This document shows, one piece after another, positions 2,338 to 39,220 of a DNA stretch of 46,144 nt (positions within the stretch are counted from its first letter, which is position 1; every line of letters starts with the position of its first letter). The notes beneath the pieces are model-generated. The model worked only from the letters and a program-made list of their open reading frames with translations, was not told where the DNA came from and searched no databases. The DNA comes from a virus (Duplodnaviria > Heunggongvirae > Uroviricota > Caudoviricetes). The DNA is taken from IMG/VR virus record IMGVR_UViG_2718218453_000007, one strand, 5' to 3'. The position numbers and the translations under genes are program-made.

Positions 2338-5300
2338 TTATTTAGAGGCAAGCGCCGCCTCAATTGCAGATAATCTTTGTTTTAATTCTGCGTTTTCTTC
2401 TTCCAGCGCGGTAACGCGACCATCTGTTTCACGGGCGACCTGAACAAGTAACCCCGTCACGGCGGCGTAGTCAACATTCAGATAACGTGTTTCTTCACGT
2501 AATTCATTGCCGTCAACCGTTGGTCCCTGCAACTCTTCACCGTAATGAGTAAACGATCCCACAGCTTCTGGTATCGCCTCCATTACTTCCTGTGCAATAA
2601 CGCCAGCATAAGGCATCCCGTTTTCCCTGAGCGTGTAGGTGTATCCGTTCATTTTACGGATTGCTTTCGTCGCGTCGCTGATAACGAGAATATCGTCTTT
2701 AAGGTCGCGGTCTGATGACTGATTCAGCGTTGTGCAATTAATAGCGCCATTTACATCAAACAACTGGCCTGCTGACGTTTTTTGCGCATAAAACAGATAC
2801 GCAGCAGACGTTCCAACCTCAAAAACGTTTTGTCGAGTACTGGAACCCCACACCCTGACAGAAAACGGTAGTTCTGCATTACCTGAGTTCTGTAAAACAA
2901 AACGATTGCCAGTCCCTGTTTGTTTTGTAAGAGTTAAATCAACAGTTGAGTTAACCTCATCCTTGTTGATAGTGAGCGCCTGCGCTTTAGCCCCGTTAAC
3001 AGCACCTGTTTTGAGTTGAACCGCGCCGTCATTACCATTTAACAGTATCTCAGCTCCGCTAAAGAAATTTTTTAGCGACAACATCTTACTTACGCCGACT
3101 GATGAACCCAACGCCCACGCGAGAGAATTACCGGTGCTATCAAACCCACGTACAAAGCAATCCATTTTGCTATAGTCTGACGTGCTTCCAAGGACATCAA
3201 TCCGCCCTCCGCCAGATTTTACCGGGTTAGATGTGGTTAATGACCTGACAGCAAGATCGGTAGATGAATTGAGATCGTCTACTGTTAATAGTCGTTTCCA
3301 TCCCTTATCAACCCCAGCCTCAAAGCTTCTTGCCCAAAATTTGGAGTTGCGACCGGCGAATTGTGTGACGTAATTACCGCTAAATTGAGCATGGAATCCG
3401 CCAACAACCATTGTTCCGTCAGGACCGCCTGCGCTCCCTGCTATTGGCTTAAACTTATTTACATTCTCTGTATGTTGAGTGCTCCAGTTTTGCCCTGTGT
3501 GAACAACCAATCCCTGATAAGAACTGAAGGTACCATCAAGGTTAAAATTAAAGAACTTACTGTTCCATGAATTATTTATATCCGTGACAACAATTTCACC
3601 AGAAGCGTTAGCGGCCCTTAGTTCAGTTTGATCGACAACCGGACCTCCTTCGGATTGTAATCTTTGAGAAACAAATGTTCTGTTTGAAACGTCCGTACCA
3701 TACGCGGTGAAAGATTGTGTTGCTTTAATCTGACCATTGTTTACAAATATAGGAATAGTGACGGTAAAATTTTTGTCAAAACTCAGGCCATTTGTTAATG
3801 CAATCCTTTCTGACACCCCTTGTCTGAACGGAAGGTTGCTGTAGAAGCCATGTTCACCGCCAGTGAAGTCAAGAACATTTTTAACAAAGTTCTTGTCGTT
3901 ATCCTCCGTTGACGTTGATACACCAAACTTATATCTAACCCCGTTGTCACCAATTACGTAGTCTTCTGTTGGAACCTTAACTTTCGCCTTGTAGCCAGTT
4001 TGCACAACGACAGGAAAAGCGCTTTTATGGATGTAGAAAGCTACATGCTGCGCATAATCTCTTTGCGACGCTTTAATGCAAAGTATCCCGAGTTCATTTT
4101 TTTCATAGCAAACAAATGACCCGTAAGCCACATCGCGAACGTCACTCCAGCCACCACATCGAATGAACCCAAAAAATGAGTTACTATTAAGCGGATTTGA
4201 TGCCGGACCTCCTGCTGTTTTTATTTCAACAGGACATAACATAGCACCGCTCCCATTCATTGCGGATGTGTCTATTATGACAGGGTAGTATTTGCCATCC
4301 ACTGCACCACCAGGGGCATTAAGGGTCATCGCTTTTGTTAATCCACCCTCAGGGATTTGCAAATTAGTTTTGGCGTCATCAAGGCTATTTGCGCCAGTGC
4401 CACCATGAGAAACATCAAGCGGTATCCATTTTTTTTGTGTGTCGCTGTAACACCCCCATGTTGATCCGGTTAAACCCAGGCGCATGGATTTATCATGGTT
4501 ATATAACCATGTTTCGCTATTCCATTGGTCAAGACGGTCCACTTCATTTTTGCGAGCGTGGCGTGTCCATTGCGGGCCTGTTGTCGGATTCCAGCGATAA
4601 GTATAAAGCGAGCGCGTAGCCCATCCCTGAAATACACCTGTATACGCTGGAGTTCCATCTACCTGACTAATAAACCCCGTAAGACTGCTTTCACCGGATG
4701 CAATCGATGGAAAGCCTTTTGCATTACTCATAATGCGCATAAATCCGATATACCCTGATGGGTTGCCGGAAATATCAGGACAATCACGCGGGGCTGAGCC
4801 AAGACCGATATTATCGCCAACAATTACTTGCGCCTGGTTGCGATAATTAAGTGCGTCCGCCGCAGATTTCGCCGCGTTTGTTTCACTGGATTTAGCATTA
4901 GTTTCGCTGGCTTTAGCGTTTGTTTCGCTGCTCTTTGCTGCTGCCTCGCTATTTTTCGCGTTGGTTTCTGATTTTTTGGCTGCTGTCGCGGAGTTTGCCG
5001 ATGCAGTTTGTGAGTCTGCTGCCGCCTGTGCGCTGTTATCCGCATTCGTCTCAGACGTTTTTGCGGCCTTCGCGGAATTTCCTGCCGCCGTTGCCGAGGA
5101 AGCGGCATTACTGGCGCTCGAGGCTGCGCTCGTTTCTGATGATTTCGCTGCCTCTTTTGAGGCCGCCGCATCCCGGGCTGAGGTGGCAGCTTCTGACGCT
5201 TTCGTGGTCGCGGTGGATGCAGAAGTGGCTGCAGATTTTTGTGACGCTGCCGCATTCGTTTCTGACGTTTTCGCCGCACCGGCACTGGTAGCCGCCGCGC

Positions 5301-12437: not shown

Positions 12438-15013
12438 CGTCCACCTCCGGAGAACAGGCCACCATCACGCATCTGTGTCTGAATTTCATCACGGGCACCC
12501 TTGCGGGCCATGTCATACACCGCCTTCAGAGCAGCCGGACCTATCTGCCCGTTCGTGCCGTCGTTGTTAATCACCACATGGTTATTCTGCTCAAACGTCC
12601 CGGACGCCTGCGACCGGCTGTCTGCCATGCTGCCCGGTGTACCGACATAACCGCCGGTGGCATAGCCGCGCATCAGCCGGTAAAGATTCCCCACGCCAAT
12701 CCGGCTGGTTGCCTCCTTCGTGAAGACAAACTCACCACGGTGAACAATCCCCGCTGGCTCATATTTGCCGCCGGTTCCCGTAAATCCTCCGGTTGCAAAA
12801 TGGAATTTCGCCGCAGCGGCCTGAATGGCTGTACCGCCTGACGCGGATGCGCCGCCACCAACAGCCCCGCCAATGGCGCTGCCGATACTCCCGACAATCC
12901 CCACCATTGCCTGCTTAAGCAGAATTTCTGTCATCATGGACAGCACGGAACGGGTGAAGCTGCGCCAGTTCTGCTCACTGCCGGTCAGCATCGCTGCCAT
13001 ATTCTGTGCAATACCATCAAAGGTCTGCGTGGCTGCACTTTTTACCTGCGACATACTGTCCGTGGCGCTCTCTTCCCACTCACTCCAGCCGGACTTCAGG
13101 CCTGCCATCCAGCTCCCGCGAAGCTGGTCTTCAGCCGCCCAGGTCTTTTTCTGCTCTGACATGACGTTATTCAGCGCCAGCGGATTATCGCCATACTGTT
13201 CCTTCAGGCGCTGTTCCGTGGCTTCCCGTTCTGCCTGCCGGTCAGTCAGCCCCCGGCTTTTCGCATCAATGGCGGCCCGTTTTGCCCGTTGCTGCTGTGC
13301 GAATTTATCCGCCTGCTGCGCCAGCGCGTTCAGGCGCTCCTGATACGTAACCTTGTCGCCAAGTGCAGCCAGCTGGCGTTTGTACTCCAGCGTCTCATCT
13401 TTATGCGCCAGCAGGGATTTCTCCTGTGCGGATAGCTGGCGACGTTGTGCCGCCTCCTCCAGTACCGCGAACTGACTTTCTGCCTTCCACAAATCCCGGC
13501 GCTGCTGGCTGATTTTCTCATTTGCTCCGGCATGCTTCTCCAGCGTCCGGAGTTCTGCCTGAAGCGTCAGCAGGGCAGCATGAGCACTGTCTTCCTGACG
13601 ATCGCCCGCAGACACCTTCACGCCGGACTGTTTCGGCTTTTTCAGCGTCGCTTCATAATCCTTTTTCGCCGCCGCCATCAGCGTGTTGTAATCCGCCTGC
13701 AGGATTTTCCCGTCTTTCAGTGCCTTGTTCAGTTCTTCCTGACGGGCGGTATATTTCTCCAGCGGCGTCTGCAGCCGTTCGTAAGCCTTCTGCGCCTCTT
13801 CGGTATATTTCAGCCGTGATGCCTCAGACTCGGCCCAGTCCTTTGCTGCCATCTCTCTGGCCTTTTCAAGATCGGCCTGCAACGTGGCGGCTGAAAGCCC
13901 AAGTTGCGCATTCGCTCTGTCCTCCCATGCTCCCCGGAGATTGGCAAGAAATGCTGAGGTTTTACCGCGCCGGTGGCTCCGGCTCTGATACCACTGCCAT
14001 TTTTTGTCCGCCTCATCAAAAGCCTTTTCTGCTTTCTCCAGCATTCCCTGGGCAGTGTCCGGGCGACCAATATCCAGCACCGAATCCCACATGGATTTGA
14101 ATGCCCGTGCTGTCCTGTCTGCCCAGGTCTCCAGCGTGCCCATGTTCTCTTTCAGGCGGCGGGTCTGGTCATCAAACCCTTTCGTTGCGGCCTCGTTCGC
14201 CGCCTGCAATGCCCCGGCTTCATCTCCGGAACGCTGCAACTGAGCAACATACGCAATCTGCTCCGCCGTCACGTTATGGAACTGACGTGCCATCGCTGTC
14301 AGTCCCGACGTCGGGTCTGTGGTCAGCTTCCCGAAGGCTTCAGCGACCTTGTCCACCTCCACGCCGGATGCAGAGGAGAAACGCGCCACACTCTGGCTGA
14401 TCGCCTCAAACTGCTCACCACCACGCACACCGGCATTCACCAGCGCCGTCAGTGACTCGCTGGTCTGGTTAAACGTCAGCCCTGCCGCCTGCCCGGCTCT
14501 GGACAGGGCCAGAATACGATCTGCCGTCAGTCCCGCCTGATTGCCGGAAAGGACCAGCGTTTTGTTGAAATCGGACAGGGTTGAGTTGCCCTGATACCAG
14601 GCATACGCCAGCGCACCGGTCGCCACCGCCAGCGAGGTGGCCCCCACCATCGGCAGGGTGATCGCACCGGCAAGCCCCCTGAACATGGGGATCATCCCGC
14701 CGAAGGAGTCCTTAACCTGACCACCCTGTTGCAGCAGGATCAGCCACGGACTTTGCCCGCCTGCAAGCTGCGTGGCCACGTCGGTGAACTGTGCAGGCAG
14801 CATACGCATGGCGGCTTTATACTGCCCGACGGAAATCCCCGCTTTCTGTGCAGCCAGCGCCTGTCGGCTCAGCGACTGTTCAACGACTGCCGCTGTTTTT
14901 TTCGCATCAGTTTCCGTACCGGAAAAATGACGCCTGACTCTGGCCATCTGCTCGTCAAATCTGGCCGCATCCAGACTTAAATCAACGACCAGATCGCCTA
15001 CCGGTTCAGCCAT
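12434..15013 (-). CDS. H: Tail tape measure protein H
   Basis: 859-aa ORF, N-terminus MAEPVGDLVVDLSLDAARFDEQMARVRRHF matches lambda H from memory; long coiled-coil region; Gly-rich C-terminal part. Confidence 0.95.
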   Translation of the reverse strand: MAEPVGDLVVDLSLDAARFDEQMARVRRHFSGTETDAKKTAAVVEQSLSRQALAAQKAGISVGQYKAAMRMLPAQFTDVATQLAGGQSPWLILLQQGGQVKDSFGGMIPMFRGLAGAITLPMVGATSLAVATGALAYAWYQGNSTLSDFNKTLVLSGNQAGLTADRILALSRAGQAAGLTFNQTSESLTALVNAGVRGGEQFEAISQSVARFSSASGVEVDKVAEAFGKLTTDPTSGLTAMARQFHNVTAEQIAYVAQLQRSGDEAGALQAANEAATKGFDDQTRRLKENMGTLETWADRTARAFKSMWDSVLDIGRPDTAQGMLEKAEKAFDEADKKWQWYQSRSHRRGKTSAFLANLRGAWEDRANAQLGLSAATLQADLEKAREMAAKDWAESEASRLKYTEEAQKAYERLQTPLEKYTARQEELNKALKDGKILQADYNTLMAAAKKDYEATLKKPKQSGVKVSAGDRQEDSAHAALLTLQAELRTLEKHAGANEKISQQRRDLWKAESQFAVLEEAAQRRQLSAQEKSLLAHKDETLEYKRQLAALGDKVTYQERLNALAQQADKFAQQQRAKRAAIDAKSRGLTDRQAEREATEQRLKEQYGDNPLALNNVMSEQKKTWAAEDQLRGSWMAGLKSGWSEWEESATDSMSQVKSAATQTFDGIAQNMAAMLTGSEQNWRSFTRSVLSMMTEILLKQAMVGIVGSIGSAIGGAVGGGASASGGTAIQAAAAKFHFATGGFTGTGGKYEPAGIVHRGEFVFTKEATSRIGVGNLYRLMRGYATGGYVGTPGSMADSRSQASGTFEQNNHVVINNDGTNGQIGPAALKAVYDMARKGARDEIQTQMRDGGLFSGGGR

Positions 15014-26451: not shown

Positions 26452-26710
26452 ATCATAACGTCCGGTTTCTTCCGTGCCAGAACCGGACTCGCTGGCATGA
26501 TGAAATATGTGTACCCGGTAACCCCGGTGTGCATCGTTTTTGATTATTCCCGCACACTCGCGCAGAAGGAGTTCCCCGTCGGGCTACGGTCTCTGTTAAT
26601 ACGGGAATACGGCGACGATACAGCGCATGATGTGTCAGGCTTGAATACCTTTATCCTTTAAAAGGGATATCAGTTAAGTTATCCCGTGTAGGGTATAAAC
26701 CATTATCAAA

Positions 26711-28597: not shown

Positions 28598-29650
28598 TTA
28601 TTTCCCCACCAGCTCGTTTATCTCTTTCACTGTCTGGTTAAACCGCTCTGACTCAAGCTCAACACCTAAGGCCCGACGCCCCAGCGCCATTGCTGCTTTT
28701 ATTGTGGAACCGGATCCCATAAAAAAATCAGCAACCAGATCACCAGGTCGACTACTGGCATTGATTATTTGCCTGAGCATATCCGCCGGTTTCTCACACG
28801 GATGTTTACCCGGGTAGAACTGAACGGGTTTATGCATCCAGACATCGGTATAAGGCACGGAGACTGATACGGAGAAATAGCGCCGGAGAGATTTAAACTC
28901 ATCCAGCAATTCAGAATATTTACGATTCAGTGAATCATAAGATGCCACCAGCTGGTGGTGTGGTTGTTCCAGTTGTTGTTCCTGAAACTTCTCTGCCGCT
29001 ATACGGGAAAACAGTGCCTGTAACTTCCGATAGTCAGCCTCATTCGGCAACTGCCACTGACTGGCACCAAACCAGTGGGAAACCATATTTTTCTTACCTG
29101 TGGCTTCGGCAATTTGTTTTGCCGTTATACCCAGTTCGGCACGAGCATCCCTGAAATACGATATCAGCGGTGCCATTATGTGCTGTTTGAGTTCCCTTTC
29201 TTTTGCTGCATAGCCGTCACTTTTGCCGCGATATGGCCCCTGGTAATGTTCAGCAAACAGAACGCGCTCTGTGGCAGGAAAATATGCGCGCAGACTTTCT
29301 TTATTACACCCATTCCAACGTCCGGACGGCTTCGCCCAGATGATATGGTTAAGCACGTTGAAACGTTCACGCATCATGATCTCAATATCAGATGCCAGGC
29401 GATGCCCACAGAACAGGTAAAGGCTTCCGGCAGGTTTTAACACCCGCCAGAACTGGGCCAGACAGTGGTCCAGCCACTTAAGGTAATCTTCGTCCCCTTT
29501 CCACTGATTGTCCCAGCCGTTGGGTTTCACCTTGAAGTACGGCGGATCGGTAACAATCAGGTCAATGGAATCATCAGGCAGGGACTGAATAAAATGCAGG
29601 CAATCAGCGTTGATTAAATCAACACTGTTTATTTTTACAGTATTTTTCAT
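28598..29650 (-). CDS. Orphan DNA methyltransferase, beta-class (N6-adenine or N4-cytosine)
   Basis: DPPY motif ([11 protein letters not shown]) near the N-terminus and AdoMet-binding FxGxG motif (DFFMGSGST) near the C-terminus; no adjacent restriction endonuclease ORF. Confidence 0.85.
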
Positions 29651-29800
29651 GGATCAGTAAGCGTAACTCTGGTAGGCTCACTCTGCTTTTGCGCTAAAGC
29701 AGTGGGCCGTGGTTCGCTTGTGACCAGTAGGCATGAGCGAATGGCTGGCAGGTGCTACCAACACCCACCAGCCGCCCATTTTCACAGCAGGAAACCGCCA

Positions 29801-30004
29801 TTACTGGCAGCGTCTGAATTTATTCCCGTACCCGCCGTTATCCTTCGCCAGACCCGCCAGAACTAACTGAGTCAGTATTAACTGGCACCGGGCTTCGCTT
29901 ACTCCGGTAGTTCTCGTCATCATGCGTGGCGTTACCCACTTGTCAGCAGGTAAGAAATGAAGGACTGCGGCGGCGGTTTCTGTCATATCTTGCTGTTTTA
30001 GCAT
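29801..30004 (-). CDS. Small hypothetical protein (possible winged-helix), first ORF after the tR'-like terminator
   Basis: 67-aa ORF from the ATG at 30004 preceded by AAGGGA Shine-Dalgarno; track ORF (95 aa) extends upstream. Confidence 0.4.
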   Translation of the reverse strand: MLKQQDMTETAAAVLHFLPADKWVTPRMMTRTTGVSEARCQLILTQLVLAGLAKDNGGYGNKFRRCQ

Positions 30005-30120
30005 GTTTTTTCCCTTCTGGTTAACATGACATACCAATAACTCTTGTCTAAAAAGCCAGCAAGATAAAAAGCCAGTATTCACGACCACCAGCGTGTTTAC
30101 TGTACTGCACCAGGTTTACA

Positions 30121-30272: not shown

Positions 30273-31214
30273 ATGAGTACAGAAAATAAGAATAAAACTA
30301 GGCGAGTGAGAGTTGGTTTTTTCACTGGTAATGGAAGCAAAAAAGATGGCACATCTGCTGCAAAACTAGCCTTTGAGCAAATGACCACAGCAGATACTGT
30401 AACTTTTCCAATAACTTACACAACAGACACCCCAAATCGAGGGTTAAAGTTAGTTATTCTTCAAAAAGATACCACACTGCAATGTTACTTTGGTTACGTA
30501 TCGTGGAGAAGGGAATGCCTACTACCGTTCATCGAGGATGCTACAGGTAGTGAGAGAACAATTCCTTTAAATGATAAAGATTCTGTAGTTGAAAGAACAT
30601 ATTTTATCTATTACTACGAAACGGATTTATTAGCTATGACCCTCAACCATATAGGGCCCAAAGTAAATGATCTGGCATTCATTTTGTATAACAAAACTGA
30701 TTTAAAAAGCGTCACTTTTGAAGCCATTTGGAAACAAGAGAGCATGAAGGAACTGCTTGAGGACGGAAATATCCTACGTAGTTTCGATCTTATAGTTGCT
30801 GCTCCAAGAAACTTTAACAAAGCTAATTATAAGATTAAAAACCCTTTAGCTAATGAAATTATTGACATGGTTGTTGGTATGGGCGGGTCGCATCTAAGAT
30901 TAAATATGCGAGGTCGGATTCGCCCGAAAAAACAAGGTTTTAACTATCTAAAAACTTCTGTCACCGATGCTATTAAGGAACTACTTGAACTTTTTCCAAA
31001 AGGTTCTGGAGGTCTAAAAATTAAAAAAATTGATGTAACAGAGCCATCCAATAGAACGCCCAAAAGTCTACTTGACCAAGTATTGGTCAGTACAAAGACA
31101 ATCATTGTCAAAAGCGGTTATCCATCCGATTCTGATATCAGAACGGCGATGATATCTGCTAAAATTGATAACGCGAACTATCTTGCACAGTATGAGCTCG
31201 CTAGCAGAGACTAA
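30273..31214 (+). CDS. Hypothetical cytoplasmic protein (313 aa), first gene of a two-gene accessory cassette
   Basis: AT-rich ORF, opposite orientation to flanking phage genes; no recognisable catalytic motif. Confidence 0.6.
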   Translation: MSTENKNKTRRVRVGFFTGNGSKKDGTSAAKLAFEQMTTADTVTFPITYTTDTPNRGLKLVILQKDTTLQCYFGYVSWRRECLLPFIEDATGSERTIPLNDKDSVVERTYFIYYYETDLLAMTLNHIGPKVNDLAFILYNKTDLKSVTFEAIWKQESMKELLEDGNILRSFDLIVAAPRNFNKANYKIKNPLANEIIDMVVGMGGSHLRLNMRGRIRPKKQGFNYLKTSVTDAIKELLELFPKGSGGLKIKKIDVTEPSNRTPKSLLDQVLVSTKTIIVKSGYPSDSDIRTAMISAKIDNANYLAQYELASRD

Positions 31215-31223
31215 TAACCAAGC

Positions 31224-31685
31224 ATGGAGGACACAATGAGAGAATTAGCCACTTTTCTCTGGAAATGCGTCCTCTGGATTCTGTTGACCTATGCAGCGAC
31301 AAAACTGTTTAAACCGATGAAGCATGCTGACGTACTCACAACAGCGGGGGTGCTCTCGACTATATCAGGCATCCTGTTTGGTTTTGTTCTGGCTGCAATA
31401 TCTATATTTAGTAGTGCAAACAGCGATAAGGAAGGAGCAATTAATGCCCTTAAGCAAAACAACGTGTTACCAACTCTGGTAAATCGATTACTTTCAACAG
31501 GGTTAACTCTCATCGTCGCATGTATATTTCCATTGATAGCGATGTTTCTACCAGATGATGTTATTGTTGCGGGCAAACCTATTGATTTCCTATTCATACT
31601 GTTAGGCTTATCCTCCCTTATAATTTCGCTATATACCTTCGGAAGGTGTTGGTTAGTGTTACGAAAAATCTTCCCCCACTTGTGA
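31224..31685 (+). CDS. Integral membrane protein (about 4 TM helices), second gene of the accessory cassette
   Basis: Hydrophobic segments VLWILLTYAATKLF, VLSTISGILFGFVLAAISIF, LTLIVACIFPLIAMFL, FLFILLGLSSLIISLYTF; 9-nt gap after the upstream gene. Confidence 0.6.
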   Translation: MEDTMRELATFLWKCVLWILLTYAATKLFKPMKHADVLTTAGVLSTISGILFGFVLAAISIFSSANSDKEGAINALKQNNVLPTLVNRLLSTGLTLIVACIFPLIAMFLPDDVIVAGKPIDFLFILLGLSSLIISLYTFGRCWLVLRKIFPHL

Positions 31686-31720: not shown

Positions 31721-32089
31721 CTAAGCGTCCATTTCAAGGTTAACATCCAACATTGAAAGGCAACCATCAATAAATCCTTCGGCTAGTTGTATTTCTATGC
31801 GTACCAATTTTTCATCCTTTCCACGCACCTTTGCAATCTTACGCTTGGATATTCTGTATAAATAATGTGCCACAAGCAGCGAGTGCTCATCTGGCTTTTT
31901 TTGCTTTAGACGAGCAAGACAACCTTCAATAATTAATGCATCACTATCTGAACAAGCCTGACGTGTTTTGCTTGTGTAGGGAAGAAGCCCCTTAAACCCA
32001 GCAGCTATAGGCGAATAGTCTACTCCAGAACTATCACTCGCCGCCCATGCTCCCCAACGCTCCAGAACCATCTGAATATCACGCATCAA
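31721..32089 (-). CDS. Q-like late antiterminator (small Q family)
   Basis: MRDIQMVLERWGAWAA...GCLARLKQKKPDEHSLLVAHYLY...MLDVNLEMDA resembles the ~125-aa phage antitermination Q family from memory; positioned upstream of the late/lysis genes. Confidence 0.55.
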   Translation of the reverse strand: MMRDIQMVLERWGAWAASDSSGVDYSPIAAGFKGLLPYTSKTRQACSDSDALIIEGCLARLKQKKPDEHSLLVAHYLYRISKRKIAKVRGKDEKLVRIEIQLAEGFIDGCLSMLDVNLEMDA

Positions 32090-32103: not shown

Positions 32104-33099
32104 TCAGGCCAACACACCAATCGCCAGCGCGCGATCGATAAAACGAAATATCAGCTCCAGTTGGGAGCCATACTTCTCTTCAAATGCCACGGTATCCGCA
32201 TGCAGCTCGTCGTGATGCTTTCTGCACAAAGGCAACACAAAGAGGTCATGCGCTTTTGTACCCATTCCACCCTGACCGTGACCTATCAGGTGGTGGGGAT
32301 CATCAGCAGGCTTTCCACAACATGCACACGGCTGTGTCTTAACCCAGCGCGTGTACTTTTCATTAACCCAGCGGCGACGTTTTGGGCGTAACATAAAAGA
32401 CTCCGGCGACTCCGGATCCACTTCCAGCGCCAGCACTTTTTTCGCTTTATCCTGGATGATGCTGGTGGCAGGAACCGAAGGCACAAGGTCACTTTCCCGG
32501 GTAACAGACGGCACAACAGGCTTCGGTAATCTCAGTGCCTTACGGGCTGCACTTTCCGGTAAGGCATCAGCCAGGTCATTACGAACCAGCCACCAGCACA
32601 GTTCCGGCATTGTCACAACGTGACTGTCATCAAAACCGAGATCCCGACGCACAACAGACAACACCCAGCGGGCACAGTTATCCGTTGCCATTGATTCCAG
32701 CCGTTCCGTGAACTGATCGCGCAGCTGGTTATCGCAGTGCCAGCACAGACGGATTGCGCCCGGAGCGTGTCGCATTGTGGTCATGTTCTCGCTGTGCCAG
32801 TCGGAATGAGGCCACTGACAGCCCTTTTCACGAAGTAACCAGCTTTCAAGACATTCCACGCCACCCGCACGACGAATAACTGCCTCATTGCGGAACACGG
32901 CCCGAACGGCAGGATCATCCGCCAGCGGTTGTGATGCCGCCGGAACGGCACCACTGGCGAAAGATGAATAACGTTCCGGCTCAGGCTCCAGCAGGACACG
33001 CCCCTGCATAAACAGGGGCATCAGCTCTGAACCTGGCCTGAACAATACGATCCCCATACGCGGGGCAATTTCAGGGGTCAGTAGTGCTCTCACGGTCAC
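32104..33099 (-). CDS. DUF968 family protein (YdfU-like) with C-terminal HNH-like Cys/His motif
   Basis: C-terminal CACCGKPADDPHHLIGHGQGGMGTKAHDLFVLPLCRKHHDELH; nin-region location. Confidence 0.6.
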   Translation of the reverse strand: MTVRALLTPEIAPRMGIVLFRPGSELMPLFMQGRVLLEPEPERYSSFASGAVPAASQPLADDPAVRAVFRNEAVIRRAGGVECLESWLLREKGCQWPHSDWHSENMTTMRHAPGAIRLCWHCDNQLRDQFTERLESMATDNCARWVLSVVRRDLGFDDSHVVTMPELCWWLVRNDLADALPESAARKALRLPKPVVPSVTRESDLVPSVPATSIIQDKAKKVLALEVDPESPESFMLRPKRRRWVNEKYTRWVKTQPCACCGKPADDPHHLIGHGQGGMGTKAHDLFVLPLCRKHHDELHADTVAFEEKYGSQLELIFRFIDRALAIGVLA

Positions 33100-33100
33100 C

Positions 33101-33943
33101 TCAATGAACGGTATCGAGCAGCTTTAACAGCTCAGGGAATCGGGATTCGAAGAAATGCGGCTGCGTCTCGCGCGGATTTGCGGGACTGGTGATGTTCTTG
33201 CCGAACATGCAGCCTTTCGCTGTCAGCGACCAGAATTTTTTGATGTTGTTAATCGCGGTACGGCTGTATCGTTCGCGCTGCTCGACGATCCCCAGCTTCA
33301 CCATCTGGTGATATGCCTGATTAGCCGTCAGGCGGATACCATACTGTTTCAGCAGTGCACTCAGTGACAGTGTCGGGCGACTTGAGCCATCGTGTGCATC
33401 AGCAGGAGCATCAATGGCATAGCGCGGTGCCAGATTCGGTAAGCCAACAGCCTCCTGGAGTTTCTGACAGGCACCAAGCACTGAAGAGTTAGACAGGTTT
33501 AACTCCCGGCGCATAAAGTCCAGCAGGATCACGCCAGCCTGCATCTTGTCAGCAGCCTGTCCGGATAATTTTTCCGGTACGCTGGTTACCATATCGAAAG
33601 TACGGATCACCTTCAGATGGAATGACGGGCTGATCCACATTGCATAAGCATACACCAGTTCCTTGCAGACATACGTTCCCCGTTCATTTCCCCCATGAAT
33701 CACACTCACCGGGTCAACACCCAAATTCTGGGTGTTGGTCAATTCATGAACAAGCTCAACAGTTTGTTGGCTGGAAAGAAACTTTCCCGGCTCCTTGGTT
33801 CTGGCATTTGCACCAGATGCTACTGCTGCGCGATGCAGATCGTTCAGGCTGTAACGCCCATAAGCATCACGACGAACTTCAATACCATCAATGACCATCA
33901 GATTATTCATACTTCGTTTCTCCTCTTGATCAGGCGGCTGCAC
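33101..33943 (-). CDS. KilA-N domain protein
   Basis: N-terminal IDGIEVRRDAYGRYSLNDLHRAAV pattern typical of KilA-N DNA-binding domains. Confidence 0.6.
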   Translation of the reverse strand: MQPPDQEEKRSMNNLMVIDGIEVRRDAYGRYSLNDLHRAAVASGANARTKEPGKFLSSQQTVELVHELTNTQNLGVDPVSVIHGGNERGTYVCKELVYAYAMWISPSFHLKVIRTFDMVTSVPEKLSGQAADKMQAGVILLDFMRRELNLSNSSVLGACQKLQEAVGLPNLAPRYAIDAPADAHDGSSRPTLSLSALLKQYGIRLTANQAYHQMVKLGIVEQRERYSRTAINNIKKFWSLTAKGCMFGKNITSPANPRETQPHFFESRFPELLKLLDTVH

Positions 33944-34319
33944 CCGCCGTTTTCTCGTACTTACTGATGGTGATCTCGACCTTCCCTTCCGGGATAACCG
34001 GTCCCCACTCCACCAGCATTCTTTTCACCTGTCTGTCGTCTTCCCACACACCCGCGTGGGTCAGGGCGTCAAACAGCGCCTTGTTATAGTTGTCCAGATC
34101 GCGGATCCGGTTATCCGGAGGAAACAACACGATCTCCACTGAAGCAGGTGCCGACGTTGGTTTTGGCAGACGACGTAACTGCTCAACTATTGCTGCGCAC
34201 GCCGCGCTCTGAAATTTTCGCCCCGCCGCGCTTATCAGGCTCTTACCAGCAAATGCCCCTTTGTTGGGGTGTCGCCAGTAGGTGTTCACGCTGGGCGGGA
34301 AAGGCAGGATCAGCTTCAT
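33930..34319 (-). CDS. rusA: Holliday junction resolvase RusA
   Basis: MKLILPFPPSVNTYWR...DLDNYNKALFDALTHAGVWEDD matches the RusA family including catalytic Asp residues. Confidence 0.9.
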   Translation of the reverse strand: MKLILPFPPSVNTYWRHPNKGAFAGKSLISAAGRKFQSAACAAIVEQLRRLPKPTSAPASVEIVLFPPDNRIRDLDNYNKALFDALTHAGVWEDDRQVKRMLVEWGPVIPEGKVEITISKYEKTAGAAA

Positions 34320-34642
34320 ACTTTCAGGCCTCTCTCATGTAACCAGTGAGTTGCACGCAGCCTTGCGTTTTCCTCACCGGCAAGCAGTGAGCGGATAATC
34401 CCGACCGCCTCGCTGTCGTCGTCCTTCACCGCGGTATGAAGCGTGATCCCCCGGGCCACACCACGCTTTATCGTGATGACGCCTTTTTTCTCCAGTGCGC
34501 GAAGATGCTCCACCGCTGCATTCACCGAACGGTATCCCAGCATGGTTGCCACCTCCTGATTGGTTGGCGGGAAGCCACGCTCTTTCTGATAAGAAATCAG
34601 CATATCCAGCACCTGCTGCTGGCATTGAGTTAACGTCGTCAT
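34316..34642 (-). CDS. LexA N-terminal DNA-binding-domain-like protein (no S24 peptidase domain)
   Basis: LTQCQQQVLDMLISYQKERGFPPTNQEVATMLGYRSVNAAVEHLRALEKKGVITI resembles the LexA winged-helix domain; protein is only 108 aa. Confidence 0.6.
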   Translation of the reverse strand: MTTLTQCQQQVLDMLISYQKERGFPPTNQEVATMLGYRSVNAAVEHLRALEKKGVITIKRGVARGITLHTAVKDDDSEAVGIIRSLLAGEENARLRATHWLHERGLKV

Positions 34643-35292
34643 GCCGCCATCTCCCTGACCAGCTTTTCCGCCTGCAGGCGAACCTGCGCCAGAAACGCCT
34701 CACCACATGCCTCAAGTTCATCGCGCCCGATATAGCTGATTGCCGGTCCCTTCCAGGTCTTGTCGAAAACAGCAATAGCACCAGCGAAGAAAGCGCCTGT
34801 CGGCACCTGCTTCTCATCCTTCGGGATAAACCAGGCAGGCAGTTCAAAACCAATACGCCCGCGAATAAAAGCAATATGATCTGCATCTTCCGGCCACCAC
34901 ACTTCGCTGGTGGCAGCTTTGATCAGGAAAACATAGCGCCCGCCCTTATCACGCATGGCACTGGCATGCTTCATGATGTAACGCATGCCGGTGATGTATT
35001 GCCCCTCATGCTGACTGGCGCGGCTGTATGGGGGATTTCCAAAGGCAGCACCTTTAAGCTCCGCAAGGCGTTCTGACCAGTCATGCGCCAGCGCGTTGTC
35101 TTCCGCCGTGTAATACGCAGCGCATTTGGCGTTATCACCGTCAGTGAACAGATCCAGAACAAACGGACCAAACAGGGTGTTAATTCCCCAGAAAATGTTG
35201 TCCGGCGTGCGCCACTGATCGCCCACTTCCTTCAGTTCATGGGCTGGTTTGTTCCGCAGTTCCACCAGCGCCTGGCAATATTTATTACTCAT
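34639..35292 (-). CDS. Phage Dam-type N6-adenine DNA methyltransferase (orphan)
   Basis: NPPY motif (FGNPPYS); stop/start overlap TAATG with the upstream gene at 35290-35294; the track ORF start (35325) is 11 codons upstream. Confidence 0.85.
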   Translation of the reverse strand: MSNKYCQALVELRNKPAHELKEVGDQWRTPDNIFWGINTLFGPFVLDLFTDGDNAKCAAYYTAEDNALAHDWSERLAELKGAAFGNPPYSRASQHEGQYITGMRYIMKHASAMRDKGGRYVFLIKAATSEVWWPEDADHIAFIRGRIGFELPAWFIPKDEKQVPTGAFFAGAIAVFDKTWKGPAISYIGRDELEACGEAFLAQVRLQAEKLVREMAA

Positions 35293-35780
35293 TAAGCCCC
35301 CACGTAATTCCCTGACAGATACCACTCATCACCCGATACAGCGCGCTTGCTGCTTTTCCGTAAACACTGCTCACGACGCGCCAGAAAATTGTTTCGTTCT
35401 GGCTGGGAGTGGCTTTCACGGAATGCAGCCATCCACACCGTTGCAGCACGACGGTATAAGCCCCTGGACTCCAGTTCTTCAGCCTGGCGGGTCAGGCATA
35501 AAATCTCCCGCGGGTCGTTAGTGCCGACATAGAAATTGCGCACAGGTCTGGTTTCACGAACTGGTTGCCGTTCCGCCTCCGGCGATATCTTTATCTGGCG
35601 CGGAAAATGTCTGCGTGTATCCCCTTCACAACGGTGAGCCACACGCCCACTCTGACGTAACTTGCTTGCTGACTGCAGAACGCGCTGCCGTGAGTAACCT
35701 GCAAAAGCATCTGCAATGTCTCCGGAAGTACACCCCGGATGGGCTTCAATGAATTTCTGAACTTCATTCAAAAGACTCAT
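35292..35780 (-). CDS. YfdN-like hypothetical protein
   Basis: 162-aa ORF between the O-like and Dam genes; same position and length as CPS-53 YfdN, from memory. Confidence 0.45.
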   Translation of the reverse strand: MSLLNEVQKFIEAHPGCTSGDIADAFAGYSRQRVLQSASKLRQSGRVAHRCEGDTRRHFPRQIKISPEAERQPVRETRPVRNFYVGTNDPREILCLTRQAEELESRGLYRRAATVWMAAFRESHSQPERNNFLARREQCLRKSSKRAVSGDEWYLSGNYVGA

Positions 35781-35782
35781 GA

Positions 35783-36601
35783 TTACCCCCTGAATCCTGC
35801 CGGGATCTGGCTGTAGTCCACGTTGTCGTAACTGGCTTTGAAGTACGGGTCCTCGCGTCTGGCTGCAGATACCGCAGGAACTTCCCAGGATTCTTCGAAA
35901 TGACGATCCGGACCAAAGAACGTGACAGCCTGTTTCACAAATTGTGTGCCGCTGTTACCCATCGCAGATACCCAGCCCGCATAGCGTTTCACACCTTCCA
36001 GCATGGTTTCGGGGTTTACCCCCTCATTCAAACGGGCTTTCCAGGCTTTGAAGGCTGCAGATTTTGAATTGCCACCAGCACGTTTGGGATATGCCAGCCA
36101 TGCCTGCTCAAACTCCGGAGAGTATTCCGGTCGGTTTGAACGAACTCGCACAGACTCATCAGCAGATGCACCAACAGCTATTGGTTCATTGACTGGTTCT
36201 TTGACTGGTTCAAAAGAGTGACTGGTTCTGGGTGAATCTCCTGCACTACCCCCTGGTGCAACTCCTGCACTACCTGGTGAATTTGCTGCACCAGATAGTG
36301 AATTATTTGCACTACCCCCTAGTGAATCTCCTGCACCATCCAGATGAAGGAGATAGATATTACTTGAGTTACCTTTTTCACCTTTCCGGGTGACTTTTTT
36401 TACCAGCCCGGACTCACAAAGGGCCGCAATATGATTCATCACAGAACGTTTGCTAATCTCGCACTGGTCAGCAATATGCTGGTAGCTGGGCCAGCACTCA
36501 CCCTGATCGCTGGCATTATCAGCCAGCTTGATCAGAACCAGTTTTCGCAATGGATTACCCACTCGAATTTTCATCGCTTTAACCATCAGCTCCATACTCA
36601 T
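35783..36601 (-). CDS. Replication initiator, lambda O-like (N-terminal HTH, repeat-encoded linker)
   Basis: N-terminal KLVLIKLADNASDQGECWPSYQHIADQCEISKRSVMNHIAAL HTH; central low-complexity linker GGSANNSLSGAANSPGSAGVAPGGSAGDSP encoded by DNA direct repeats. Confidence 0.75.
   Translation of the reverse strand: MSMELMVKAMKIRVGNPLRKLVLIKLADNASDQGECWPSYQHIADQCEISKRSVMNHIAALCESGLVKKVTRKGEKGNSSNIYLLHLDGAGDSLGGSANNSLSGAANSPGSAGVAPGGSAGDSPRTSHSFEPVKEPVNEPIAVGASADESVRVRSNRPEYSPEFEQAWLAYPKRAGGNSKSAAFKAWKARLNEGVNPETMLEGVKRYAGWVSAMGNSGTQFVKQAVTFFGPDRHFEESWEVPAVSAARREDPYFKASYDNVDYSQIPAGFRG
36180..36340. repeat. Candidate replication origin iterons inside the O-like gene
   Basis: Three copies of TGACTGGTTC (36184-36227) followed by three to four copies of a ~19-bp unit TGCACTACC(C)CCT(G/A)GTGAA (36241-36336) with internal dyad symmetry. 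Confidence 0.6.
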
Positions 36602-36834
36602 GCTGCACCTCCGAGATGCTTCATGTTTTTTCCGGAGCGAAAGGCTATAAGCGGCATACTGACGCGGTAATTACGGCCCAGCGGTTCACAAATCACCTTC
36701 TGACATTCACGGTCAACCAGGCTGACACGTAGAACATGCCCTGCTGGCGTGGTGTACCACTGCCCAACTGTGGGTGTTGATATTTTTTTACGCTGAAATA
36801 AACGGTAAATGTTGAGGAGCAACGGATTAAGCAT
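36598..36834 (-). CDS. Small hypothetical protein
   Basis: 78-aa ORF overlapping both neighbours by a few nt (operon-like); no family recognised. Confidence 0.35.
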   Translation of the reverse strand: MLNPLLLNIYRLFQRKKISTPTVGQWYTTPAGHVLRVSLVDRECQKVICEPLGRNYRVSMPLIAFRSGKNMKHLGGAA

Positions 36835-37663
36835 GACGATGCCCTCCGCTGATATTCAGGAGACGGTGAATATGAAAATTAGCCTTATCCGCCAGACGAA
36901 TACGTTCAGCTTGCAAGTTAAGAAGGGTTTCTACCAGAACCTGATGTGCCTGCGGATCCGAAAGAGTTACCTTGCGCAGAGCACGTAGTGCAGTTGTTAC
37001 ATAACTGAGTTTATGTAAGTCTTCATCATTCAGACGAGTGAGGGCTGGGACAGTAGCCATGATGGCAGCCTCCTTGATCGGTGAAATACTTCCACCACCG
37101 GAAACGCCAATTTCGCTGGTGGTGAACTGAACGGGGTTGGCGTAACCGGTGATCAAGGAAACCGGCGCATCTTTCGATGCCCCCGCCCAGCCCACCATAA
37201 CTTTGATGTGAGCAAATGCGGACGATAAAAAAGACGCTGGCGCGTCATATATCGCCTTGATCAATTCCAGGACGCCAATCCCGGCACCCGCTTTATAAGG
37301 TGCCTGAACAGTGTAACGTCCCGGAATGGCAGAATCAATGTGCTGGTGGTCCTTCACACTCAACAAAATCACGCTTGAATTTCCACAAAGGACTAAAGCA
37401 CTCATGCGGGTAGTCTTTGCGAAGATAGATAACGCGCTGTGTTTCTGGCTCCCAACGAATAACATGAACATAAAGTCCTCTTCCGTCACGAAACCAGCGG
37501 TTAAGTTCCTGCACAACTCGCCCCCCACAGTCAGGTAAAGTTCTCTGTGGTTACTTACAGCCAGGAGATTTGGTAATCTGCATTCATGCCGTAACAACAG
37601 GTGTTCAGCGACGCTGACCACCAGCTGTTGCGACAAACGGTTATTTGCCGTTAAACTGTTCAT
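36827..37663 (-). CDS. Hypothetical early protein (278 aa)
   Basis: ORF in the early-right operon between the CII-like and O-like genes; no family recognised. Confidence 0.5.
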   Translation of the reverse strand: MNSLTANNRLSQQLVVSVAEHLLLRHECRLPNLLAVSNHRELYLTVGGELCRNLTAGFVTEEDFMFMLFVGSQKHSALSIFAKTTRMSALVLCGNSSVILLSVKDHQHIDSAIPGRYTVQAPYKAGAGIGVLELIKAIYDAPASFLSSAFAHIKVMVGWAGASKDAPVSLITGYANPVQFTTSEIGVSGGGSISPIKEAAIMATVPALTRLNDEDLHKLSYVTTALRALRKVTLSDPQAHQVLVETLLNLQAERIRLADKANFHIHRLLNISGGHRHA

Positions 37664-38223
37664 GCGTTAGTTTCTCCACAGACACAAAACGCCACGACGC
37701 CCGGAGCTGCACACTCGCGGGCGTCACTCTTTTCTGGAGCGCAAAAGATTTTGTAGACCAGTGCTGCATGCTCCTGGAGCTTCGAAATTGACAGATACAA
37801 CTCATCATTAATTGCTGTCTGCTCGTGTGGCTCCACTACCCCATCTTCGATTGCCGAACGAATCTGCTTTGAGTAACTCCCGATCTGTTCGATGACTTCC
37901 AGCAGGCGCTGGTTTATATCGGCGTTCTCTACTTCCTCAATTTCAGGAAGCGATACAAACACCCCACCAGCAGACTGTGCGACAGCATCCGCAATGTAGT
38001 GAGTGCCAGCCGCGCGCTGTAAAATCATTGCCCATCCCAGCGGGAAAATCTGATCGCCATCTGCACGAAGGCGGTTGAATAAAGCGTTCTCTGTTACATC
38101 TAGCCACTCAGCAGCTTCAGCGTACCCCCCCGGCAACGCCGCGATAGTTTTTCTGACAGCTTTCACGTACCACTCAGGCTGTTTTTCTACTTTCCAGTGA
38201 TGCTTACCCACGGTTAGCCTCAT
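37660..38223 (-). CDS. CII-like / YdaT-like early regulator
   Basis: 187-aa ORF immediately downstream of the Cro-like gene; resembles the phage CII (CP76) / YdaT family by position and HTH-like segment AEAAEWLDVTENALFNRL. Confidence 0.4.
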   Translation of the reverse strand: MRLTVGKHHWKVEKQPEWYVKAVRKTIAALPGGYAEAAEWLDVTENALFNRLRADGDQIFPLGWAMILQRAAGTHYIADAVAQSAGGVFVSLPEIEEVENADINQRLLEVIEQIGSYSKQIRSAIEDGVVEPHEQTAINDELYLSISKLQEHAALVYKIFCAPEKSDARECAAPGVVAFCVCGETNA

Positions 38224-38545: not shown

Positions 38546-39220
38546 ATGAAAACAGTCCATGACATCCGGCGGTCTAACGCCAGAAAACTGAGAGATGGTG
38601 TTGGCGGGAATTCTTCCTTTGCCACCATGATTGATCGCGAGCCAACCCAGACCAGCAGGTTTATGGGAGATGGTGCTACTAAAAATATCGGTGACAGCAT
38701 GGCACGGCACATCGAAAAATGTTTCGACCTGCCTGTCGGATGGCTTGATCAAGAACACCAGACAACAAACATCACAAAAAAACCTGATGTTTCAATTACT
38801 AACAAACAAATAACGTTAGTCCCTGTCATATCATGGGTACAGGCCGGAGCATGGAAAGAAGTTGGCTATTCTGAGGTTGATTTGAGCACAGCAGAAACTT
38901 ATCCCTGCCCTGTACCCTGTGGCGAAATGACTTATATCTTGCGGGTGATTGGTGATTCAATGATTGATGAGTACCGCCCGGGAGACATGATTTTTGTAGA
39001 TCCTGAAGTCCCTGCCTGCCACGGTGACGACGTTATTGCATTGATGCACGATTCAGGCGAAACCACCTTCAAGCGGTTGATAGAAGATGGAACACAGCGT
39101 TATCTCAAAGCATTAAACCCAAACTGGCCTGAGCCTTACATTAAGATTAACGGTAATTGCTCTATAATTGGTACAGTGATTTTCTCGGGAAAACCAAGAA
39201 GATACACAATAAAGGCCTAA
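38546..39220 (+). CDS. CI-like prophage repressor (HTH + S24 LexA-like peptidase domain)
   Basis: C-terminal ...ILRVIGDSMIDEYRPGDMIFVDPE...ALMHDSGETTFKRL... with the Ser (GDSM) / Lys (FKRL) dyad arrangement of S24 autopeptidases. Confidence 0.85.
   Translation: MKTVHDIRRSNARKLRDGVGGNSSFATMIDREPTQTSRFMGDGATKNIGDSMARHIEKCFDLPVGWLDQEHQTTNITKKPDVSITNKQITLVPVISWVQAGAWKEVGYSEVDLSTAETYPCPVPCGEMTYILRVIGDSMIDEYRPGDMIFVDPEVPACHGDDVIALMHDSGETTFKRLIEDGTQRYLKALNPNWPEPYIKINGNCSIIGTVIFSGKPRRYTIKA

Follow-up and report, generated by a model that had tools for sequence, protein, structure and literature searches.

Our analysis of a 46,144-nucleotide stretch of viral DNA (IMG/VR record IMGVR_UViG_2718218453_000007, Caudoviricetes; the whole stretch is hereafter called the window) centers on a small minus-strand gene that codes for a LexA-type DNA-binding domain without the S24 peptidase domain. 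The open reading frame (ORF) occupies 34316..34642, exactly where an earlier note made from the sequence alone had placed it, starts with ATG and encodes a protein of 108 amino acids (aa). A Shine-Dalgarno sequence, GGGAGA (34650..34655, minus strand), lies 7 nucleotides (nt) ahead of the start codon. The gene shares an ATGA with each of its neighbors, indicative of translational coupling on both sides: at 34639..34642 (minus) its start overlaps the stop of the gene for a Dam N6-adenine methyltransferase (PF05869; 34639..35325, minus), and at 34316..34319 (minus) its stop overlaps the start of rusA, which codes for a RusA Holliday-junction resolvase (PF05866; 33930..34319, minus).

The winged helix-turn-helix can be assigned to residues 1-69 of the protein (34436..34642, minus) from Pfam, a structural model and identity with LexA. 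Residues 1-65 match the full length (1-65/65) of the Pfam profile PF01726 LexA_DNA_bind with an E value of 2.9e-19 and 69 bits, the cut-off of this profile being 23.7 bits, and residues 1-69 of the Escherichia coli LexA are 50.7% identical to the protein. The LexA chains 1lea and 3jso of the PDB are matched with E values of ~1e-15, and the best PDB matches also include 1jhf (G85D) and 1jhh (S119A). The protein was modeled with AlphaFold2 from an alignment of 20 family members. The model reached a predicted local distance difference test score (pLDDT) of 83 and shows helices at residues 6-22, 28-35 and 40-52 and strands at 56-58 and 66-68; the linker that follows (~residues 69-74) is poorly ordered and leads to another pair of helices, 75-87 and 93-103. 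In Foldseek searches the LexA N-terminal domain was the best structural match of this model, which superposes on it, including on the DNA-bound structure 3jso, with a root-mean-square deviation of 1.1 Å over 68 residues. The rest of LexA is missing. A Pfam scan found no match to the S24 peptidase family PF00717 in the protein, and the next ORF is that of RusA. The NCBIfam profile TIGR00498 (lexA equivalog) is matched only at positions 1-91 of 203 and with 70.8 bits, below its curated equivalog cut-off of 110.95 bits; therefore, what the protein retains of LexA is its N-terminal part alone. Lacking the S24 domain and a conserved cleavage site, and scoring below the equivalog cut-off, the protein fails as LexA proper, in agreement with the earlier description of it as a LexA-type winged helix without the autoprotease. 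Self-cleavage is impossible because the domain that carries Ser119 and Lys156 is missing, so that the protein would not be cleavable upon DNA damage, as had also been anticipated. Its short length is not a truncation artifact, since thousands of copies in the databases measure 104-108 aa and neither the length nor the tail changes in relatives at 40-50% identity. Membership in a defense system was rejected, PADLOC giving only a weak generic winged-helix match (CARF3, E 3.6e-4).

In the complex of E. coli LexA with DNA, residues S39, N41, A42 and E45 are responsible for the direct readout of CTGT and their mutation alters specificity (PMC11442139); older lists of contact residues also include E44 (PMC3091678), and the contact residues used here come from secondary sources. 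They fall in the recognition helix, residues 39-52 of our protein (SVNAAVEHLRALEK, as compared with SPNAAEEHLKALAR in LexA; 34487..34528, minus), delimited from the LexA alignment. The earlier note had proposed an alignment of the DNA-contact residues of LexA and took their loss, together with a lack of binding to SOS boxes, as the outcome that would speak against it; in our alignment S39, N41, A42 and E45 are all identical to those of LexA. The same S-N-A-E combination occurs in 75 of 84 close relatives (S-N-S-E in another 7), and E44 of LexA is replaced by V. In a more distant subfamily, of the mEp390 type, the readout pattern is SNAE in 50 of 80 sequences, SNAA in 19 and SNAD in 6. The β-hairpin wing, residues 54-68 in the family alignment (GVITIKRGVARGITL, GVIEIVSGASRGIRL in LexA; 34439..34483, minus), retains the core positions G61, R64, G65 and I66, which vary little or not at all within the family. 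LexA sites are reported to owe their fixed 8-bp spacer to wing contacts (PMC8565304). In addition, the protein has gained K59 and R60, and the net charge of its domain is +4, the same as that of LexA. The identity of the four CTGT-reading residues together with the conservation of the wing core make a specificity for SOS boxes plausible.

The conserved helical-hairpin tail of ~35 residues was absent from the earlier note. Its two amphipathic helices (75-87 and 93-103; residues 75-103, 34334..34420, minus), recognized from the model and the family alignment, form a putative dimerization module with hydrophobic residues at A77/V78, I80/I81 and L84/L85/A86 in the first helix, then at A93, L95, A97 and W100/L101. 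The tail consensus EAVxxIRxLLxxExxARxRAxxWLxxxG is kept in relatives down to ~40% identity, A97 and L101 being invariant, and the hairpin is modeled by AlphaFold2 at pLDDT 87-88. Foldseek returned no match for the tail, and a tail profile searched against the PDB gave nothing meaningful (best E 0.0035, with an unrelated solenoid). A helical hairpin of ~30 residues is unlikely to be stable by itself, which leads us to propose that two tails may pair into a four-helix bundle; judging from this model, the tail probably substitutes for the dimerization function lost with the S24 domain. Metagenomic data include single polypeptides in which two LexA DNA-binding domains follow each other and S24 is missing, among others P0132 (222 aa) and P0133 (141 aa). 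These fusions may be single-chain pseudo-dimers, and their existence is consistent with pairs of domains as the working unit. The motif LLAGE of the tail (A88-G89) aligns weakly in HMMER with the region VAAGE around the LexA cleavage site. However, a functional cleavage site of the LexA Ala84-Gly85 type was rejected: relatives that are 86-88% identical have VG or AN instead of the dipeptide and distant ones lack it, none of the LexA chains of the PDB is matched by the tail profile, and the protein has no catalytic domain.

The window corresponds to a lambdoid prophage in reverse orientation, with its early-right genes on the minus strand. Reading in the direction of transcription, these code for a CII-like protein (37660-38223), an Ash-family protein (36827..37663), an O-like replication protein (35783-36601), a PerC-like protein (35292-35780), the Dam methyltransferase, the LexA-domain protein, RusA, a KilA-N protein (33101-33943), a DUF968/HNH protein (32104-33099) and the Q antiterminator (31721-32089), all on the minus strand, and an S24-type CI repressor is encoded on the plus strand at 38546-39220. 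On the coding strand we found neither a sigma-70-like site upstream of the LexA-domain gene nor a terminator that would separate it from its neighbors. Its place inside a delayed-early rightward operon without a promoter-like site of its own implies expression after induction or infection. From this gene order, it is probably a delayed-early gene of the “nin-region” type, made in lytic growth and not in the quiescent lysogen. The earlier note had suggested that such a phage protein could hold SOS-regulated genes repressed or tune prophage induction. The repressor half of this proposal fits the readout residues, which suit an SOS box, but holding genes off in the lysogen does not fit a gene of the delayed-early operon, and a function in the lytic phase is the plausible alternative. 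Directly downstream of Q, the window also carries two genes on the opposite strand, at 30273..31214 (plus; phrog_7651, 313 aa) and 31224..31685 (plus; phrog_8552, 153 aa), for which we found no Pfam or PADLOC match. At the corresponding place after Q, one or two genes of unassigned function are likewise found on the opposite strand in SfII, SfIV, mEp390 and a Klebsiella phage; in the last of these, a strong SOS box, TACTGTTTTTTTGTACAGTA (locus L003, near position 3996), lies ahead of the unit. These post-Q units may be morons or defense cargo.

The gene is widespread. A block of ~1.5 kb comprising the Dam gene, the LexA-domain gene and rusA is 97-98% identical in 50 phage records, in which the copies of the protein are 95-100% identical, and its carriers include SfV (orf42), SfII, mEp460 (mEp460_046, annotated as “LexA DNA binding domain protein”), cdtI and 15 phages converting to Shiga toxin (Stx) 2c. 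Among 5426 complete E. coli genomes, 2232 (~41%) contain the gene, in up to four copies per genome; it is intact in 2221 of them, with a nucleotide identity of at least 95% in almost all. Residues 1-108 match PHROG 362 (“transcriptional repressor”) over the whole profile (1-106/106) with an E value of 1.1e-59, and the RefSeq/NCBI name of the family is “LexA family transcriptional regulator”. In a genomic study of Stx phages, the same name is given to pham 237, a pfam01726-only family of 15 phages that appears there as a catalogue entry only (PMC8136144). The protein is thus a full member of the catalogued PHROG 362/SfV orf42 family, which is already routinely annotated, and it is not new, nor a discovery, as a sequence. 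A HMMER search of 1.84 billion representative proteins retrieved relatives at 40-52% identity that keep the length and the tail (P0124, P0126, P0129, P0130 and others), and Foldseek comparison with viral models revealed many stand-alone LexA-domain proteins in other phages. The genes for distant relatives in mEp390, a Klebsiella phage and the Edwardsiella phage EPP-1 also lie in the interval that runs from the replication genes to Q, in most cases adjacent or close to a rusA and/or DUF968/HNH gene.

The window contains three CTGT-N8-ACAG matches (0.55 expected), of which only one is a high-quality SOS-type box. This box, TACTGTAAAAATAAACAGTG (29622..29641, minus-strand reading), was found by sequence scan and covers codons 3-9 of a late-region N6/N4 DNA methylase gene (28598..29650, minus). 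In eight methylase genes that are 71-99% identical, from phages of E. coli, Citrobacter, Klebsiella, Hafnia and Morganella, its CTGT and (A/C)CAG arms are invariant and its A/T-rich spacer and the adjacent codons vary. It thus looks like a real LexA-type operator, most simply one for the host LexA, and it is a candidate cis target of the 108-aa protein; it suggests LexA control of the late-operon methylase or a LexA roadblock in it. The other two matches, at 12928-12943 in a tail gene and at 37545-37560 in the ORF of the Ash-family protein, have G+C-rich spacers and are probably due to chance. Obligatory partnership between the methylase box and the LexA-domain gene was rejected, as box module and gene also occur separately: phages of Shigella, Salmonella and Proteus have the gene and gave no match to the methylase region. 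The methylase gene is also preceded by a non-coding leader of ~110 nt (~29651-29770, minus), between the ORF 29801..30088 and the methylase ATG, which is highly conserved in the same eight phages. It contains the hairpin GGCCCAC-TGCTTT-AGCGC-AAAGCA-GTGAGCC, in which a few of the changes are compensatory, and has no match in Rfam; it might be a translational control element, perhaps Com/mom-like, or an RNA.

We scanned related phages for strong boxes, defined by one perfect arm, another arm that may be CCAG and a spacer with at least 6 of 8 A/T. Compared with shuffled sequences, four genomes carrying the gene (the window, SfII, SfIV and 2H10) had five strong boxes against ~1 expected, and three control genomes (lambda, HK97 and P22) one weak box against ~0.7. 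In 80 IMG/VR loci with the identical gene we counted 62 strong boxes against ~7 expected, the latter extrapolated from the per-genome shuffles of the carrier and control scan, and in 80 loci of the mEp390-type subfamily 14 against 3. Eight of these 14 boxes fall into the 110 nt that separate rusA from the KilA-N gene, just downstream of the LexA-domain gene and ~110 nt upstream of the KilA-N gene (loci L161, L162, L166, L167, L169, L170, L173 and L175). SfIV has a box of unrelated sequence likewise in its rusA-KilA-N gap (L014, 32641-32656), and in the window the two genes overlap (33930-33943), with no SOS box at the junction. The gap boxes suggest that the KilA-N “transcriptional regulator” gene (phrog_129) may have a LexA-controlled promoter in some phages. 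The rusA gene of SfIV contains an in-frame stop and is itself unannotated. In phage EPP-1 (L004), a box, AACTGTATGTAAATCCAGTA (2733-2752), precedes a two-gene unit (2812-3495 and 3495-3710) coding for a Rha/Ant antirepressor (PF09669, phrog_63) and for a LexA-domain-only protein of 71 aa, which is devoid of the helical tail and has RSPNAAEDHLKAL as helix 3. Boxes at no more than 1 kb from the LexA-domain gene occur in three versions of unrelated sequence: SfIV, the L161-L175 loci and EPP-1.

In the cI allele common to SfII and mEp460, the hinge that joins the helix-turn-helix and S24 domains contains a strong SOS box (SfII, L013, 29167-29186; mEp460, L001, 11179-11198). The SfII 20-mer is identical to TACTGTATATAAAAACAGTA, the operator sequence of E. 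coli umuD and sbmC (PMC3009722), and that of mEp460 is one base off; the hinge box was seen 23 times among the 80 prophage loci. The window has another cI allele (38546-39220), which lacks the hinge box. A consensus scan found no promoter overlapping the hinge box of SfII and mEp460 or the SfIV box. Some carriers also encode a dinI homologue, namely 2H10 (L015, 26202..26450, minus), with two SOS boxes upstream of the gene (26466-26509), and the Klebsiella phage (L003, 1-234); these homologues are a further link of the carrier phages to the SOS circuit.

These features can be combined in a reading that we favor only tentatively, at somewhat less than even confidence: the 108-aa protein would be an uncleavable LexA surrogate of lytic growth and would bind SOS boxes as a dimer held together by the tail, its binding, dimerization, repression and benefit to the phage being inferred. 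It would be translated from the delayed-early rightward transcript, in coupling with the genes for Dam and RusA. The winged helix would read the CTGT half-site of the host LexA, and two copies, joined by the C-terminal helical hairpin and by LexA-like wing contacts on the DNA, would occupy CTGT-N8-ACAG boxes as a pair. Because it has neither the S24 domain nor the catalytic Ser and Lys, activated RecA would be unable to remove it, and LexA-controlled promoters would be closed again after the destruction of the host LexA. The targets would be either host SOS genes or phage SOS boxes, such as those before the KilA-N/Rha antirepressor-like genes and in the late methylase gene, and the outcome for the phage would be a timed shut-off of SOS-driven functions.

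Several observations weigh against this surrogate. Compared with LexA, the protein shows changes of basic and acidic residues (R7C, R28N and E44V), and position 45 is not fixed across the family, being A, D, G, I or L in distant relatives. Dimerization through the tail is an inference only. The phages without the LexA-domain gene that served as controls are three genomes only; the boxes of the 80 loci with the identical gene reduce to three recurrent modules, and 37 of these loci have no strong box, with flanks of up to 10 kb scanned. No LexA-domain match came from Stx2a-converting, Yersinia or Citrobacter phages, and yet these also have the methylase module. With so few recurrent modules, linked by descent, and a methylase box in groups without a LexA-domain match, the host LexA alone can explain every box, and the associations between boxes and genes are suggestive at most. 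In the literature that we searched there was no functional study of the PHROG 362 family, only genome catalogues (PMC8136144) and the work on the Bacillus phage GIL01. The one characterized stand-alone LexA-domain protein of a phage, gp6 of GIL01, is an activator and binds a different palindrome.

This precedent speaks for the rival that survives best, an unlikely one in our estimation, according to which the protein would be a phage-specific factor whose LexA fold has been retargeted to an operator in its own genome, with no meaningful action on host SOS boxes. The truncated LexA homologue gp6 (ORF6, 66 aa) binds GaCACAnnTGTGaC and activates the late promoter P3 (PMC6182141), and the variation at position 44 of the recognition helix, and at position 45 in distant relatives, would suit retargeting, as would the labels of PHROG 362 and NCBI, which name a generic regulator only. 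Nevertheless, all four CTGT-reading residues are kept here, unlike in gp6; the gp6 operator is at chance level in the window (two hits with one mismatch against 1.8 expected, neither near the late region), and late transcription depends on the Q antiterminator. Non-SOS spacings of CTGT and ACAG (N0-N20, inverted or everted) were not clearly above shuffles either, with counts of 0-4 against ~0.5 expected and no multiple-comparison test applied. Behavior like that of gp6 in the strict sense was rejected, as neither BLASTP similarity nor an excess of its operator was found. Alternatively, although improbably, the protein might antagonize or modulate LexA as a weak dimer or monomer that competes for half-sites or binds alongside, thereby loosening or retiming SOS repression. 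The presence of the LexA recognition residues and the absence of the LexA dimerization domain speak for this possibility, and the isolated N-terminal fragment of LexA, in the work of Hurstel et al. in 1986 and of Kim and Little in 1992, reportedly binds operators specifically and much more weakly. The conserved amphipathic hairpin argues instead for an oligomerization surface of its own, and a protein bound to the operator over a promoter would, even then, be prone to act as a repressor. Finally, a functionless, decaying remnant of a captured lexA is very improbable: the weak HMMER extension into the LexA linker (LLAGE versus VAAGE) is all that points to it, and it is contradicted by the gene remaining intact in so many E. 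coli genomes, by the length, DNA-contact residues and tail kept in relatives at 40-50% identity, by a start and a stop translationally coupled to the neighbors, and by an Ala-Gly not kept in 86-88% identical relatives, along with a tail profile that matches no LexA.

The uncleavable surrogate could be extended further, to a RecA-proof LexA mimic that, from a gene in ~41% of complete E. coli genomes, re-represses SOS boxes genome-wide in lytic growth, once the host LexA has been cleaved, an extension that we regard as doubtful. Its targets could then include SOS toxins, colicins and the LexA-controlled KilA-N/Rha antirepressor-like genes of the same or of competing prophages, and it would amount to a phage-imposed shut-off of SOS and a means of competition between prophages. 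Should the protein indeed bind SOS boxes, many lysogens of E. coli, Shigella and Stx-producing E. coli would hold a second, RecA-insensitive SOS repressor that appears at prophage induction. Such a repressor could influence how long the SOS response lasts and how strong its output is, and could affect mutagenesis, the expression of toxins and colicins, the cross-induction of co-resident prophages and possibly the behavior of Stx2c phages, with relevance for the pharmacological suppression of SOS. A retargeted regulator like gp6 would instead be an ordinary accessory transcription factor.

Among known systems, the E. coli LexA (1lea, 1jhh and 3jso; TIGR00498) shares with the 108-aa protein the winged helix-turn-helix, the readout residues and the wing core. 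The phage protein differs from it by the absence of the S24 domain, of Ser119 and Lys156 and of the dimer interface, in place of which it has a helical C-terminus, and by being encoded in a phage early operon, whereas lexA is a self-regulated chromosomal gene. Like the Ind- forms of LexA (G85D, S119A), it would be a binder of SOS boxes immune to activated RecA, as far as can be judged from its sequence; the Ind- mutants retain the C-terminal dimerization domain. Like the 1-84 cleavage fragment of LexA, it contains only the DNA-binding domain. That fragment has no dimerization domain, binds weakly and is degraded; unlike it, the phage protein has its own conserved tail. With gp6 it has in common to be a phage-encoded, stand-alone winged helix of the LexA type without a protease domain, and gp6 is also expressed early in the lytic program. 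However, gp6 has no tail, its recognition helix has diverged and its binding depends on K38 (PMC6182141). Its helix 3 (SHKTAHRYLMQLE) is far from the LexA pattern, whereas the readout residues of LexA are kept in the 108-aa protein; aligned by eye, SVNAAVEHL of our protein faces SHKTAHRYL of gp6, and K38 is absent. The late genes of the window lie downstream of the Q antiterminator, whereas gp6 activates a late promoter. The two proteins gave no BLASTP alignment and appear to be of the same kind, that is, stand-alone LexA domains of phages, without detectable homology. The closest known counterparts are SfV orf42, mEp460_046 and pham 237, which belong with it to the same PHROG 362 family, at 95-100% identity and at the same position between the Dam and RusA genes.

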